Below, piece after piece: positions 15,604 to 56,391 of a stretch of 64,000 nucleotides of DNA. Each line of letters starts with the position of its first letter. Position 1 is the stretch's first letter. The notes under the pieces are model-generated. The model was not told the DNA's origin. It did not search any database and saw only the letters and a program-made list of their open reading frames with translations. Source of the DNA: an uncultured Gemmatimonadales bacterium (GTDB taxonomy: Bacteria > Gemmatimonadota > Gemmatimonadetes > Gemmatimonadales > GWC2-71-9); assembly GCA_963730185.1 (NCBI GenBank), contig CAVSQW010000012.1, positions 64,001-128,000 of the forward strand, in the 5' to 3' direction. The translations under genes and the position numbers were made by a program.

Positions 15604-17738
15604 CCCGGGTAGTACCGGGCCCCGGCCGCGACCTGGCGGCGGAGGGCCTCGCAGGGCTCGAACCGGGGGCCGAGTCGACCCGCGAGCTCGTCGAGCACCC
15701 GAACCACCTCCGCCGCGCCCACCCCGTCGATCATCCGCAGCGGTCCGCCCCGGAACGGGGGGAAGCCGATCCCGAAAATCGCGCCGATGTCGCCGTCGCG
15801 TGGCTGGCGCACCACGCCCTCGTCGAGGGCCCGGGCCGCCTCGTTGAGGAGCGGATAGGCCAGGCGGCGCTGAATCTCGCCCGCGTCCACCTGCGCCAGC
15901 GGCTTGACTCCCAGGAGCGGGTAGACCGCCGGATCGGGCTCGGTCCTCTTACCGTTCTCGTAGCGGTAGAAGCCCTTCCCCGCCTTCCGTCCGATCCGCC
16001 CGTCCTCGAGCATCCGAGTCAGGGTCGGCGCCGGCGCCAGCCGATCGCCGAAAGCCTCGTGCATTACGCCCGCCCCTTTGCCGGCAACGTCGAGCCCGAC
16101 CTCGTCCAGCAGCGCGATCGGACCGACCGGAAAGCCGAAATCGAGCATGGCCCGGTCGATCGCCTCGATCGGGGCGCCCTCCAACACCACTCGCGCGGCT
16201 TCCGCCAAGTACGGAGACAGGATCCGATTGACCCAGAACCCAGGCCGATCGGCGACCACGATCACGGTCTTGCCCATCCGACGGCCGAGGCGAACGGCGG
16301 TGACGACGGCGTCGGGGCCGGTCCGCTCGCCCGGGATGACTTCGAGCAGCGGCATCCGATCGACCGGCGAAAAGAAGTGCATCCCGAGCACCCGTTCCGG
16401 ATGGGCGGCCCCTTCGGCGATTCGAGAGATCGGGATGGTCGAGGTGTTGGTCGCGAAGATCGCGTCAGGAGCGAGAACGGCCTCGAGCTCGGCCAGCACC
16501 TGGCGTTTCACGGACAGGTCCTCGAAGACGGCCTCGATCACCAGGTCGGCCCGACGGAAGCTGGCCAGATCCACACCGCCGCTGACCAGGGCCGCGAGGC
16601 GGGCCTGCTCGAACCGAGTGATCCGCTTCCGCTTGAGCCGTCCGTCCACCAGGTCGAGGGCCCCCTTGACCCCTCGACCCACCCGGACCAGGTCGGCGTC
16701 CTTGAGCCGCACCTCCACCCCCGCGGTCGTCACCGCGGTGCCGGCGATGGCCGAGCCCATGAACCCGGCCCCGACGACGCCGAGCCGGCGGACCTCCCGG
16801 GCCGTGCCGGCGCCGGGGGAGACCCCGTCGTCCTTCTTCAGCGCGGTCGTGGCGAAGAAGATCCGGACCAACTCGCGCGAGACCGGCGTGACCGCCAGCT
16901 CGCCGAAGGCGCGAGCTTCGGCCGCGAGGCCGGCCTTCATCCCCCGCGCCAGCCCCGTCCTCACCACGTCGAGCGCCCGAAGCGGCGCCGGGTAGTGGCC
17001 GCGGGTCCGTTTCATCACCTGCTTCCGGGCGGTCCGGTACACGATGGCCCGGCCCAGAGCGGTCCGGTCCAGGAACGCCCCTTGCCACCCGCCCTTCGGC
17101 GTCCGGCGGGGCGGCCCTTCGCGAGCCAGCCGGTCGGCCGCCTTGACCGCGATCTCCTCGAGGATCGGAGGCGGGACCAGTTCGTCGACCATCCCCAGGC
17201 GATGAGCCTTCTGGGCCCGCTCGCTCTTACCGGCGAGGATGATGTCGAGCGCCGCCCGAAGCCCGATCGTCCGGGGCAGGCGGTTCGAGCCGCCCGCGCC
17301 GGGCAGGATGCCCAGCTGAATCTCGGGGAGACCGAGCTGGGTCTTGGGATGGTCGGTGGCCACCCGATAGTGGCACGCCAGCGAGAGCTCGAGCCCCAGG
17401 CCGAGGCAGGTGCCATGGATGGCGGAGACGATCGGCTTCGGGAAGCGGGCCACCCGGTCCAGGAAGGCGTGCCCGGCGGCGCTCATCGCCTCGCCGTCGG
17501 CCGCGGTGGCGATCCTGGTGAACTCGTTGATGTCCGCGCCGGCGATGAAGCTGTCCGGCTTGCCCGAGATCAGCACCACCCCCCGGACCGCCGAATCGTC
17601 CCGGAGCGTCGTCAGGACCGCCTCGAACTCCGCCACGGCCGGCGGACCAAAGGTGTTGACCGCCTCACCCGGCACGTCGAGCACGACCACCGCGATCCCG
17701 GGGCCGGCGGAGCGAACCGTCATGCGCCGCTCGGCCAT
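15600..17738 (-). CDS. fadJ: Fatty acid oxidation complex alpha subunit (enoyl-CoA hydratase/3-hydroxyacyl-CoA dehydrogenase)
   Basis: FIAGADI, LGLPEIQLGILPG, GVVGAGFMG, EAVFED, NTSTIPI, GMHFFSPV, PFRGGP. Confidence 0.92.
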   Translation of the reverse strand: MAERRMTVRSAGPGIAVVVLDVPGEAVNTFGPPAVAEFEAVLTTLRDDSAVRGVVLISGKPDSFIAGADINEFTRIATAADGEAMSAAGHAFLDRVARFPKPIVSAIHGTCLGLGLELSLACHYRVATDHPKTQLGLPEIQLGILPGAGGSNRLPRTIGLRAALDIILAGKSERAQKAHRLGMVDELVPPPILEEIAVKAADRLAREGPPRRTPKGGWQGAFLDRTALGRAIVYRTARKQVMKRTRGHYPAPLRALDVVRTGLARGMKAGLAAEARAFGELAVTPVSRELVRIFFATTALKKDDGVSPGAGTAREVRRLGVVGAGFMGSAIAGTAVTTAGVEVRLKDADLVRVGRGVKGALDLVDGRLKRKRITRFEQARLAALVSGGVDLASFRRADLVIEAVFEDLSVKRQVLAELEAVLAPDAIFATNTSTIPISRIAEGAAHPERVLGMHFFSPVDRMPLLEVIPGERTGPDAVVTAVRLGRRMGKTVIVVADRPGFWVNRILSPYLAEAARVVLEGAPIEAIDRAMLDFGFPVGPIALLDEVGLDVAGKGAGVMHEAFGDRLAPAPTLTRMLEDGRIGRKAGKGFYRYENGKRTEPDPAVYPLLGVKPLAQVDAGEIQRRLAYPLLNEAARALDEGVVRQPRDGDIGAIFGIGFPPFRGGPLRMIDGVGAAEVVRVLDELAGRLGPRFEPCEALRRQVAAGARYYPG

Positions 17739-19030
17739 CAGCTCCGCTCCAGCACGAGCGCGAACCCCATCCCGCCCTGGGCACAGATCGAGATCAGGCC
17801 GAACTCTACGTCCCGCCGGGTCATCTCGTTGGCGAGGGTGGTGACCAGGCGGGCGCCGGTCGCGCCGAAAGGATGCCCGATCGCAATCGAGCCGCCGGTC
17901 ACGTTGGTTACCTCCCAGTTCACCTCGCCGGTCGGCGCCGACCGCCCGAGCCGATCCGCCCACGCCTTCGAGCCCCAGGCCTCGACGTTCGAGAGCACCT
18001 GGGCGGCGAACGCCTCGTGGATTTCGACCAAGCCGAGGTCCTTCCAGGTAATCCGGGCCCGGTCGAGCGCCTCGGGCACCGCGAAGACCGGCCCCATCAG
18101 CAGCTGCCAGCCGGGATCCACGGCAGTCACCGCGTAGCTCCGGACCGCCGCCAGCACCGGCAGCCCCAACGCCTCGGCCTTGCCCCGCGCCATCACGATG
18201 ACCGCGGCCGCGCCGTCGGTGAGCGGCGACGAGTTCCCGGCGGTGACGGTCCCGTACTTCCGGTCGAAGGCCGGCCGGAGCTCGGCCAGCTTCTCCAGAC
18301 TGGTGTCGGTCCGGATCCCGTTGTCGGTGATGACGATCTCGTCCATCCCTCGGCCGCCGAACCAGGGCGCGATCTCGGCCGTGAGCCGCCCGTCGGCGGT
18401 CCCGGCCGCGGCCCGCTGGTGGCTCATCAGGGCCAAGCGATCCTGTGCCTCCCGCGAGATGTGGTTCTCCTTGGCCATCTTCTCGGCCGACTGCCCCATG
18501 GTTTCGCCGGTCGAGGGCTCCGCGATGGCGGGAGTGACCGGGATCAGGTCACGCGGTCGGATCCGGGCGAAGGTCGCGAGCCGCTGCGCCAGCGTCTTGG
18601 CTCGGCTCGCCGCCACCAGGATCTCGCTCATCCGCCGGGAATGGAGGATGGGGACGTCGGAGAGCACTTCCACCCCGCCAGCAATAACGGTGTCGGCGTG
18701 CCCGAGCACGATCTGATCCGCGGCCGAGGTCACCGCCTGCGCGGCCGAGGCACAGGCTCGATTGAGGGTGTAAGCCGGGACCGTCTTGGGGAATTGCGGG
18801 AGGAGGCTCACCTCGCGGGCGACGTTGGGCGCCAGCACGGACGGCACCACCTGGCCGAAGATCACCTGGTCGACCTCGCGGCCGTCGAGGCCCGAGCGGG
18901 CCATGAGTTCGCGGGTGGCGAATCGGGCGAGGGCGACGCCCGAAGCCTCCCGGAGCACGGTACCGGCCCGGGCGAAGGGCGTACGAAGGCCAGCGACGAT
19001 CACGGGCTGGCGTTCGCGCGAACTGGCCAT
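17738..19030 (-). CDS. fadI: Acetyl-CoA C-acyltransferase (3-ketoacyl-CoA thiolase)
   Basis: GLRTPF, NRACAS, EIHEAFA, GGSIAIGHPFGATG, ICAQGGMG. Confidence 0.93.
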   Translation of the reverse strand: MASSRERQPVIVAGLRTPFARAGTVLREASGVALARFATRELMARSGLDGREVDQVIFGQVVPSVLAPNVAREVSLLPQFPKTVPAYTLNRACASAAQAVTSAADQIVLGHADTVIAGGVEVLSDVPILHSRRMSEILVAASRAKTLAQRLATFARIRPRDLIPVTPAIAEPSTGETMGQSAEKMAKENHISREAQDRLALMSHQRAAAGTADGRLTAEIAPWFGGRGMDEIVITDNGIRTDTSLEKLAELRPAFDRKYGTVTAGNSSPLTDGAAAVIVMARGKAEALGLPVLAAVRSYAVTAVDPGWQLLMGPVFAVPEALDRARITWKDLGLVEIHEAFAAQVLSNVEAWGSKAWADRLGRSAPTGEVNWEVTNVTGGSIAIGHPFGATGARLVTTLANEMTRRDVEFGLISICAQGGMGFALVLERS

Positions 19031-54565: not shown

Positions 54566-54997
54566 TCAGCTCCGCGAGAGCGCCGAGTCCCGGTCCAAGC
54601 CGTACTTACGAATCTTCGCAAGCAAGGTGGAGCGGGCGATGCCGAGCAGGTGGGCCGCGTTGCGCCGGTTACCGCGCGTGTGGCGCAGCATCGCCCCGAT
54701 GTGCCGCTTCTCCACGGCCTCGAGCGACTCAGGCTGGCCGCCGGCCCCGGAGAGCACGGCCCGGAGCTGATCCCAGTCGAGGCCGGGCAAGCTCGGATCG
54801 ATCAGGACGGCATCGATGGCCGGCGACGCCAGCGCCGCGCTGGCGCCCTCAGCGGTCTCCTGGACCACGGGCTGATGTCCCTGGCTCCGGATCGCGTCCG
54901 CGAGCGATTCGATGACCGGAGCCCGGGCGCTGGCGATCAGCACGTTGAGCCGCCGGCCCGTCGTAACCTCCGGGATGGTTGAACCAATCATGAGCAT
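54566..54997 (-). CDS. Degenerate REC-like + Fis-type HTH protein, no AAA+ domain
   Basis: NVLIAS..AIDAVLIDPSLPG; ESLEAVEKRHI..TRGNRRNAAHLLGIARSTLLAKIRKYGL. Confidence 0.85.
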   Translation of the reverse strand: MLMIGSTIPEVTTGRRLNVLIASARAPVIESLADAIRSQGHQPVVQETAEGASAALASPAIDAVLIDPSLPGLDWDQLRAVLSGAGGQPESLEAVEKRHIGAMLRHTRGNRRNAAHLLGIARSTLLAKIRKYGLDRDSALSRS

Positions 54998-55139
54998 AAT
55001 CCTCGAAGCCGGGGTGGATCGCAATGCCGGGACCCCACTGGCGCCCGGGATGTGACGAATGCTGGTCGATGTAACTTATGACGTTCGAGGCGGGGTGATC
55101 TTGTACGCGCCAGGTTGAGCGTCAGGATTCTAGACTGAC

Positions 55140-55186
55140 AAAAAAGTGAACGGCCGCACAGGCTTGTGACCTGTCGCGGCCGCTCA
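55140..55186 (-). terminator. Rho-independent terminator
   Basis: Minus: TGAGCGGCCGC-G-ACAGG-TCACAAG-CCTGT-GCGGCCGTTCA-C-TTTTTT; a G.U pair on minus would be an A.C mismatch on plus. Confidence 0.85.
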
Positions 55187-55533
55187 GCGGACGGACTACC
55201 CGAAGTCGGGGCTTTCACCGCCGTTCTTCTTCCTGCCGCCGCCTCGAAGCTGATCCGCTCCGGAGGTAGGGCACAGGAGCTTCGGGATTCGATTCCCAGG
55301 CCGGAGGGCCTCCCCCACCTGGTTCATCCATCCCGGCGCTGCGAGTCGGATCGGGTCGCGGACCGACCCTTCGCACTGCACCCCGAGGCGCCAGATCGGG
55401 GCGGGTGAAGCACGCGACCGGCTTCACCAACTCGACCGGAGTGATCACCGGGATCGACGGTCCCCCCACGAACGGGTTCGACTGGGGTCCCTCCCCCGAC
55501 TGTTCGATCGAGCCGCATCTCGCGGTTCGCGTC
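55140..55533 (-). ncRNA. Candidate ~400-nt structured non-coding RNA (unassigned family)
   Basis: Bounded by a sigma54 match and a terminator; multiple perfect hairpins; long-range stem 55204-55211 / 55494-55501; no convincing ORF. Confidence 0.55.
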
Positions 55534-55544
55534 GTGGCCGGAAA

Positions 55545-55559
55545 GCCACGACCCTGCCA
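55545..55559 (-). promoter_or_regulatory. Sigma54 -24/-12 promoter candidate
   Basis: Minus TGGCAGGGTCGTGGC(T): GG-N10-GC with TGGCA. Confidence 0.6.
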
Positions 55560-55697
55560 CGCGACGCCCTTCCAAGCTAGGGGCTTCCGAAAACTCCGCA
55601 AGCGCCTTTGTTTCTTCGGGTTACGTCATTCGATGTGCTTCGGTCAGGAGCCCGGAATGACCCCGCCGACACGGGCTTACGACGCTTCACCACGCCG

Positions 55698-55719
55698 TGT
55701 GGAAATGTGTATCCACATT
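55698..55719. promoter_or_regulatory. Overlapping palindromes, candidate protein-binding site
   Basis: TGTGGA-N8-TCCACA and AATGTG-N4-CACATT. Confidence 0.55.
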
Positions 55720-55776: not shown

Positions 55777-56391
55777 TCAGCTCTCGAGGCCGACTTCGAC
55801 GTACCGGTAGGACGCTTCCTCGTCCTTCGGGGCGAAGAGCGCACCCGCCGCCGTGGCGGCGAACCACCCTCCCACCCAGGGCCGGGGCGCATCGAGCTGC
55901 TCGACGATCGCCCGAAACCATCGGTGGATGTGCCGCACCTCCGGCGCCCGTCGTCCCAGCAAGGCCAGCAGGGCCCCAGCCCCGGAAGTGGCCCGAAGGA
56001 AGTGCGCCAGGGCATGGGCTCGCTGCGAAAACTCGACCGCCTTGACCCCCGGCTCGTCGAACAGCACCCGGCCCTCGAAAACATCCATCGGCGGGGCGTC
56101 GAGCCGGGGACCGAGATAGACGTAGTTCCGACCCTCCGGCGTCCGCCGCTCCACGACCGCCGCAGCCGTCTCGCTGGTGAGGCGAACCGCCTGCACCATG
56201 TCCTCGTCCTGGAGGATCCCCACGGCCTGGGTCCACTCCAGCGCCGCCAGGGCGGTCTCGATCGGGCAGCCCGTCGCGTCGTCGAAGGCGATCAATCGGG
56301 GGGCCTCGCCCGCCCGGAGCAGAAAATGGGACAGCCCCTCGGCTCGGTCCAGAAAGGTGCGAACGGCGAGGCTCCCAGGGGTCGGTGTCAT
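55777..56391 (-). CDS. Hypothetical protein (204 aa) with internal two-fold repeat
   Basis: AVRTFLDRAEGLSHFL ~ KAVEFSQRAHALAHFL; RNYVYLG ~ YRYVEVG; TATCAT -10 just upstream of ATG. Confidence 0.8.
   Translation of the reverse strand: MTPTPGSLAVRTFLDRAEGLSHFLLRAGEAPRLIAFDDATGCPIETALAALEWTQAVGILQDEDMVQAVRLTSETAAAVVERRTPEGRNYVYLGPRLDAPPMDVFEGRVLFDEPGVKAVEFSQRAHALAHFLRATSGAGALLALLGRRAPEVRHIHRWFRAIVEQLDAPRPWVGGWFAATAAGALFAPKDEEASYRYVEVGLES

Follow-up and report, generated by a model that had tools for sequence, protein, structure and literature searches.

A conserved RNA with a double-pseudoknot core, encoded beside an orphan two-repeat protein gene in two families of Gemmatimonadales

Our analysis covered a stretch of 64,000 nucleotides from an uncultured Gemmatimonadales bacterium (the window), in which a gap between two minus-strand genes is the gene for a structured non-coding RNA of about 430 nt that is real and conserved (Table 1). 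An earlier note on the window had placed there an undescribed, multi-branch non-coding RNA of about 400 nt on the minus strand, and this was borne out by covariation in 70 homologs and by the lack of an Rfam match. The downstream neighbor, encoding a Fis-type protein, occupies that position in just 33 of 75 loci and does not belong to the RNA unit. A protein-coding reading of the gap was rejected, as the best frame was stop-free in at most 27 of 55 homologs and the homolog lengths modulo 3 were distributed 14/16/25. As the earlier note expected, Rfam gave no match to the RNA: at the gathering score the whole window contained only a tRNA, at E 10 the RNA region gave chance rows only, and at E 1 nothing was reported over the RNA in eight homolog loci. 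The RNA is not RNase P RNA, tmRNA or SRP RNA, each of which has its own match elsewhere in the genome, the first two by model matches and SRP RNA by a 97-nt match below the large-SRP cut-off. Elsewhere in the window ARAGORN reported a tRNA-like gene whose anticodon loop is unassigned (17697-17787, minus strand), for which no Rfam entry was found at the gathering score.

Table 1. Features of the RNA locus, in positions of the window.
Feature	Position	Strand	Remarks
RNA gene	55140..55567	minus	~428 nt, 5' end predicted; BLAST 143/150 family genomes; fold z -4.4; metatranscriptome contigs 55144-55538
204-aa protein, two homologous alpha/beta halves, candidate RNA partner	55777..56391	minus	no known family
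152-aa protein, C-terminal Fis-type helix-turn-helix (PF02954)	54566-55024	minus	downstream of RNA
Inverted pair of TCCACA boxes, part of DnaA-box-like array	55698..55717		upstream of RNA promoter
A-rich element just 5' of -35	55611..55623	minus	159/183 promoter-bearing loci
-35 hexamer TTGCGG, sigma70-type	55596..55601	minus	TTGC motif with 16-nt spacer in 43/44 loci
-10 hexamer TAGCTT, sigma70-type	55574..55579	minus	TAnnnT in 41/43 loci, CAACCT in 2
5' hairpin P1	55515..55567	minus	variable sequence; distal stem 8/8 pairs with double changes
5' arm P2-P3-P4 with kink-turn	55430..55513	minus	P2, P3, P4 87-95% paired
Junction hexamer UGAUCA, predicted intermolecular contact 1	55442..55447	minus	self-complementary in 107/124 six-nt forms
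Three-hairpin core locked by two pseudoknots	55335..55428	minus	38 pairs, 95.5% paired, 29 with double changes, 0/500 shuffles
P5	55428-55404	minus	core hairpin
P6	55403-55379	minus	core hairpin
P7	55375-55340	minus	core hairpin
PK1, loop-loop kiss	55418-55413 with 55360-55355	minus	end pair covaries
PK2, P6 loop with bases just after P7	55392-55388 with 55339-55335	minus	C-G to U-A in 49/235
3' domain closed by long-range P8	55189..55333	minus	inner helices 87-97% paired
P8	55333-55326 with 55196-55189	minus	8/8 pairs with double changes
P9 loop GGCC, predicted intermolecular contact 2	55307..55310	minus	palindrome switches
Intrinsic terminator	55140..55186	minus	stem covaries; untemplated A-tail joins at 55144

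The fold was derived from 70 aligned homologs and contains 116 pairs, with 93.2% of the cells paired. The covariation check proposed in the earlier note found double changes in 90 of these pairs; none of 500 shuffles equaled the fold and slid controls stayed at or below 42%. This covariation control is lenient, because the structure was drawn from the same sequences and the shuffles ignore kinship, and the stronger evidence for the fold is the many pair types seen per helix. Folding energy, compared with shuffles as the earlier note had proposed, pointed the same way: the 396 nt delimited in that note fold at a z of -3.1 and the 428-nt unit at -4.4, with none of 100 shuffles as good in either case, while 11 homologs without the terminator ranged from -0.4 to -4.7. 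From 5′ to 3′ the RNA consists of hairpin P1, a kink-turn arm, a three-hairpin core, a 3′ domain with a long-range helix, and the terminator. P1 is missing from the short forms and from many paralogs. In a kink-turn, two helices are separated by a 3-nt bulge and the tandem G-A pairs that follow it. Its parts are found in the 5′ arm as GGA (55494-55492), the bulge (55458-55456) and GA-U (55455-55453); in 46 of 55 homologs the 5′ strand has GGGGAG, together with the matching bulge-GA-U strand, and the flanking helices covary. Throughout the RNA, invariant positions sit in tertiary contacts and junctions and not in repeated loop motifs. The long-range closing stem that the earlier note had drawn between 55501-55494 and 55211-55204 did not survive the comparison: 71% of its cells are paired, its count of double changes was equaled by 474 of 500 shuffles, and each of its arms covaries with other partners.

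The core spans about 95 nt and is retained in all size variants of the RNA, which range from 155 to 430 nt; covariation within it was scored on 30 diverse cores. Its three hairpins had been recognized from the sequence, and in the 70 homologs 98% of cells are paired for 55428-55404, 98.6% for 55402-55380 (CCCCGA/TCGGGG) and 96% for UGCGA/UCGCA (55375-55340). The inner register GGGTCG/CGACCC suggested for the last of these was replaced, as it would consume four bases of the kissing-pair loop; the register kept, 55368-55363 with 55354-55349, is 95.9% paired. At the end pair of PK1 we counted G-C in 186, A-U in 28, C-G in one and a wobble or mismatch in 17 of 232 scored sequences. Natural short forms of about 155-350 nt retain the promoter, the core and the terminator; two of them are without the PK1 kiss, and all keep P6 and PK2. 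HDV-like ribozymes have P3/L3 and a J4/2 cytosine within a nested double pseudoknot. We rejected this identity for the core, in which PK2 follows directly after P7 and the P6 loop is without an inner helix, and which has no Rfam match. In the 3′ domain two three-way junctions carry invariant GAAC, GGAU and AGAAGAAC segments. Three further elements of the earlier note were recovered in the 3′ part: CCAGG/CCUGG (55322-55296), paired in 90% of cells in the 70 homologs; the AAGAAGAA tract at 55231-55224, which is single in the RNA and partly base-paired; and the minus-strand terminator (55186-55140), on which sequence and covariation agree. A simple terminator scan made no call at this last position, where the stem has an internal loop.

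Parts of the stretch were found in 20 metatranscriptome runs. Contigs from four of the runs cover 55144-55538, such contigs giving no start, strand or level; among them one of run X1 spans 331 nt with three differences and one of run X2 140 nt with none. Depths reach the hundreds to thousands in some of the contigs, depth here not being equal to expression level. In contigs of runs X2 and X3, which count as one because their depths are identical, an untemplated A-tail joins at 55144, and this is consistent with a minus-strand RNA ending in the terminator. The aligned RNA contigs extend over neither flanking gene, which says nothing on the expression of those genes.

Transcription is predicted to start from a conserved housekeeping sigma70 promoter, whose elements were counted in 44 loci (50 minus six truncated or paralogous ones). 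The complete pattern of -35, 16-nt spacer and -10 was matched by 183 of 240 unique loci, and the other loci of the 240 include paralogs with different promoters. From the -35 at 55601-55596 and the -10 at 55579-55574, the +1 is therefore predicted near 55567; the A-rich element at 55611-55623 appears to be UP-element-like. The earlier note had instead derived the transcript from a sigma54 promoter with a +1 near 55533. The letters of that site exist, but its -12 part reads TGGCT, just 8 of 55 homologs have GG..GC in the same columns, and the full form TGGC-N7-TTGC occurs in none of the 240 loci; the sigma54-like site is one arm of hairpin P1 and lies inside the transcript, whose predicted 5′ end is about 35 nt farther upstream than the +1 proposed then. 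One relative's contig matches to 55538, five bases past that +1, a weak hint against it.

Farther upstream lies an array of TCCACA boxes, of which at least two are present in 161 of 166 loci. They resemble relaxed DnaA boxes. The array of one genome (G039) holds a perfect TTATCCACA, and the strict DnaA 9-mer consensus occurs in only 5 of the 183 promoters. In inverted loci the array stays with the RNA promoter and not with the protein gene. Control of the promoter by a DnaA-type protein, which would tie the RNA level to growth state, is a possibility that these boxes raise and that we hold to be somewhat doubtful. We also considered the array as part of oriC and rejected this: the GC-skew switch is located at dnaA on another contig (C9), and therefore the locus is not oriC. 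The distance between the RNA gene and dnaA is 36-135 kb in four well-assembled relatives. A denser TCCACA cluster was seen at G000:C15:291640-291910, beside an AT-rich tract and between two divergent genes, one of which looks pyruvate-kinase-like by eye; there is no GC-skew switch at this cluster, which possibly is a DnaA-binding cluster away from the origin.

The stretch was recovered by BLAST in 143 of 150 genomes of its own family (f1). A covariance model of the ~99-nt core, used for the genome search, found it in 67/68 genomes of f1 and 11/12 of a second family, f3, with 0/70 in f2, which is probably the type family, and 0/101 in f7. A model of 139 positions of the RNA gave 71/72 in f1, 2/2 in f3, 0/31 in f2 and 0/44 in nine other families. 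The carriers are these two Gemmatimonadales families, f1 and f3, and some genomes have two to three copies. Weak BLAST matches in other families (four genomes) were discarded, as the RNA models give no support at the family level; one of these loci, L228, was checked directly. The covariance models describe the range within the phylum, and the range beyond it comes from pattern, BLAST and protein searches only. Seven true pattern matches were found among the 119 genome matches listed (L109, L117, L137, L140, L141, L143 and L175), and the first six of these are Gemmatimonadales genomes assembled from metagenomes. In viral contigs all 38 pattern matches listed were due to chance, with no true match to the RNA, and the RNA was not found in phage and plasmid collections. 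The tallies include unpublished genomes (G014, G068, G134, G182 and G211), of which G182 also contributed loci to the RNA alignments and to the promoter, box, paralog, flank and Rfam tests; the conclusions are independent of these genomes. The 6S RNA model (RF00013) gave no match in any of the 105 genomes sampled from the order, and none in most of the class's remaining families; three families in other parts of the phylum did give matches. We found no description of the RNA in the literature, subscription journals and the supplements of bioRxiv 10.64898/2026.10.21.760802 and PMC5737381 being outside the scope of the search. The accessible main text of bioRxiv 10.64898/2026.10.21.760802 does not mention Gemmatimonad, and its database and supplements, like the supplement of PMC5737381, may list the motif. 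Within the large orphan RNAs of bacteria, taken as a broad kind, we rate this RNA as a new family.

The gene for the 204-aa protein adjoins the RNA in 62 of 75 loci, 60 times upstream on the same strand and twice inverted, and the 13 loci without it are mostly extra RNA copies. Among metagenome loci with at least 900 nt upstream, 45 of 50 show the same adjacency. It persists despite inversion and intervening genes: in L036 and L217 the gene is inverted but still adjacent, and in f3 each of the seven genomes where both were located has the gene next to the RNA in convergent orientation. The protein was found in 109/113 genomes of f1 (one match being a weak fragment), 3/3 of f3 and 0/134 of other families, a distribution that agrees with that of the RNA. 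Both RNA and protein are absent from G022 and G340, which may reflect one assembly gap in each because the genes are adjacent. In three genomes of genus g19 (93-99% complete) and in G039 (92% complete) the RNA is present and the protein was not detected; in G079 (85% complete) the protein and the box array are present and the RNA was not detected. A range shared among kin is weak evidence of partnership. In many loci (L005, L007, L030, L213) an ORF of about 190 aa with a signal-peptide-like start lies between the 204-aa gene and the RNA promoter; it is absent from the window. About 1.7 kb from the RNA in another locus we noted a long, near-perfect hairpin with several weak matches to microRNA models (L252:1470-1553).

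The protein is not basic in composition (21 K+R vs 27 D+E) and has conserved Arg/His/aromatic motifs. Among 1.84 billion representatives it had 126 matches. Its two halves align at E 2e-5, and its structural model (pLDDT 86) consists of alternating short strands and helices. No meaningful match was obtained in Pfam, NCBIfam or PDB sequences, no usable one in the ESM Atlas, and none by Foldseek at E 0.001 for the whole model. The best structural match to the whole two-half model had a Z of 5.6, with an rmsd of 3.3 over 70 aligned positions; rows for WGR, AP2 and microcompartment folds (Z 5.0-5.6) were set aside as not meaningful. Whether the protein directly binds the RNA is in our judgment an evenly balanced question; if it does, it would most likely do so on the core, because this is the sole part kept in all protein-adjacent size variants.

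Two loops of the RNA are palindromic. The central adjacent bases of the junction hexamer are AU in 79 sequences, GC in 22, GU in seven and AC in one, and a rough tree places the GC form on about 10 separate branches. The P9 loop is GGCC in 170, GAUC in five, CGCG in four and CAUG in one of 211 sequences, with GAUC on at least three branches and no other column switching along with it; in protein-adjacent copies 126 of 128 gap-free loops are palindromic. The AU/GC covariation is not intramolecular, because adjacent bases cannot pair within one chain. According to the accessible parts of PMC12286853, a switch among GGCC, GAUC and AGCU is evidence for the intermolecular loops of OLE and GOLLD that were proven by cryo-EM. 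The palindromic loops here switch among the same GAUC, GGCC and AGCU, and because this matches the switches at the OLE and GOLLD bridges (accessible parts of PMC12286853) we infer dimerization: the RNA probably dimerizes through the two loops. Neither contact is universal, since the hexamer is longer or missing in 87 of 211 sequences and most paralogs have a non-palindromic, GCAA-type P9 loop; the minimal forms are without both palindromic contacts. Additional RNA copies whose 5′ part is shortened lie in unrelated neighborhoods (L220, L222-L224, L227, L229, L230, L260-L268). In most of them the kissing pair is A-U and the P9 loop is of the GCAA type, and the copies show at least two promoter types, one of them not sigma70-like.

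The explanation that we tentatively prefer, while rating its chance at a little under even, is that of an OLE-like ribonucleoprotein scaffold, in which a self-dimerizing double-pseudoknot RNA acts with the co-inherited 204-aa protein. The RNA would be transcribed from the housekeeping promoter, its level perhaps set by DnaA, and would fold around the pseudoknotted core; it may pair with a second copy through the palindromic loops, and the orphan protein may bind the core. The most likely job of the RNA would then be to hold and tune this protein. A bolder version seems to us rather unlikely: a new class of RNP machine, in which the self-dimerizing RNA and a two-repeat protein of new fold would be under DnaA control and essential enough to explain near-universal retention in the two families, with a core that is possibly catalytic. 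We also think it unlikely, if worth serious attention, that the RNA acts independently of the protein, as an RNA-only assembly or as a ribozyme based on the double-pseudoknot core, with the protein being a co-acquired neighbor or a DNA-binding regulator of the box array at the promoter. The intact RNA without the protein in g19 and G039, the protein and boxes without the RNA in G079, the paralogs with their own promoters in unrelated neighborhoods and the invariant junction bases would all fit such an RNA, and ROOL and GOLLD assemble without protein (accessible parts of PMC12286853). However, the adjacency of the RNA and protein genes outlasts inversion and intervening genes, the box array follows the RNA promoter and not the protein in inverted loci, and none of the known ribozyme models scores.

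The remaining alternatives account for less of the data than the protein-associated scaffold that we favor. The transcript looks abundant and is of sigma70 type, and RF00013 detects no 6S RNA in its own genome (82% complete), in f1 (0/72) or in f3 (0/2), so that a stand-in for 6S RNA, binding RNA polymerase, might be envisaged. 6S RNA is a hairpin of about 190 nt with a central bubble. The fold here is multi-domain and pseudoknotted, not a long hairpin of this kind, and 6S RNA is also undetected in families without the RNA (f2 0/31, f7 0/16); we regard this role as improbable. Descent from a domesticated mobile element, such as an intron, a retron or a transposon guide RNA with a protein changed beyond recognition, would suit the narrow range, the scattered extra copies and the modular gain and loss of domains, but we give it little credence: among 54 proteins flanking paralogs and protein-less copies there is no transposase, reverse transcriptase or nuclease, phages and plasmids gave no match to the RNA, the 38 viral pattern matches listed all being chance, and no Rfam intron or guide-RNA model matched. 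Very improbable, finally, is the role proposed in the earlier note, by analogy with CrcZ, Qrr and Csr RNAs, of a sigma54-dependent sponge for an Hfq/Crc- or CsrA-type protein or of a base-pairing regulator. It could point to the one AAGAAGAA tract and a few GGA triplets, but these sponge motifs are not repeated in loops and are partly paired, the sigma54 site is not conserved, and Hfq was found in 0/5 and CsrA in 1/5 carrier genomes.

Few large RNAs with intricate folds occur in bacteria, and most of them lack an assigned function, even those whose structure has been solved (accessible parts of PMC12286853 and PMC12968392). The RNA described here adds an unrelated fold that lends itself to direct tests in vitro: the core is defined by natural minimal versions of about 155 nt, the two palindromic loops offer a built-in break-and-rescue test of dimerization, and there is one specific candidate protein. 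If the preferred scaffold reading is true, RNA self-assembly through palindromes has an origin independent of OLE, GOLLD and ROOL, and almost all genomes of two large families in an abundant environmental phylum have retained an RNP.

With CrcZ, Qrr and CsrB the RNA shares a stand-alone transcript with a terminator and one A-rich tract, but here there is no conserved sigma54 promoter, motifs are not repeated, and the cognate proteins were mostly not found. It differs from 6S RNA, which has no RF00013 match in its own genome, in its multi-branch, pseudoknotted fold. The accessible parts of PMC12968392 describe raiA as an orphan, abundant RNA with a compact two-pseudoknot core, optional peripheral stems and natural minimal versions, all of which is reminiscent of the RNA here; however, both raiA pseudoknots arise from one linker and its P1 joins the ends (same source), and raiA is monomeric according to the accessible parts of PMC12286853, whereas here PK1 is a loop-loop kiss, PK2 pairs a loop with a tail, the ends are unjoined, and there is no Rfam match. 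The symmetric kissing loops with covarying adjacent bases recall those of GOLLD and ROOL, RNAs that are larger, ROOL being found in phages and prophages near tRNA islands (accessible parts of PMC12286853); the RNA here is, in contrast, encoded on the chromosome, is present in almost all genomes of its families and had no match in the phage and plasmid collections. It differs from OLE in being shorter, in its double-pseudoknot core, in its phylum and in having no Rfam match, and its neighbor is predicted to be a soluble alpha/beta protein and belongs to no known family, unlike the membrane protein OapA of OLE. Yet like OLE, going by the features given in the accessible parts of PMC12286853, it is a large, structured, stand-alone RNA with a kink-turn and with protein partners, the partner here being a candidate, and two of its loops are palindromic with covarying adjacent bases, as the same source describes for OLE. 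Despite these several similarities to OLE, the RNA does not belong to that family.
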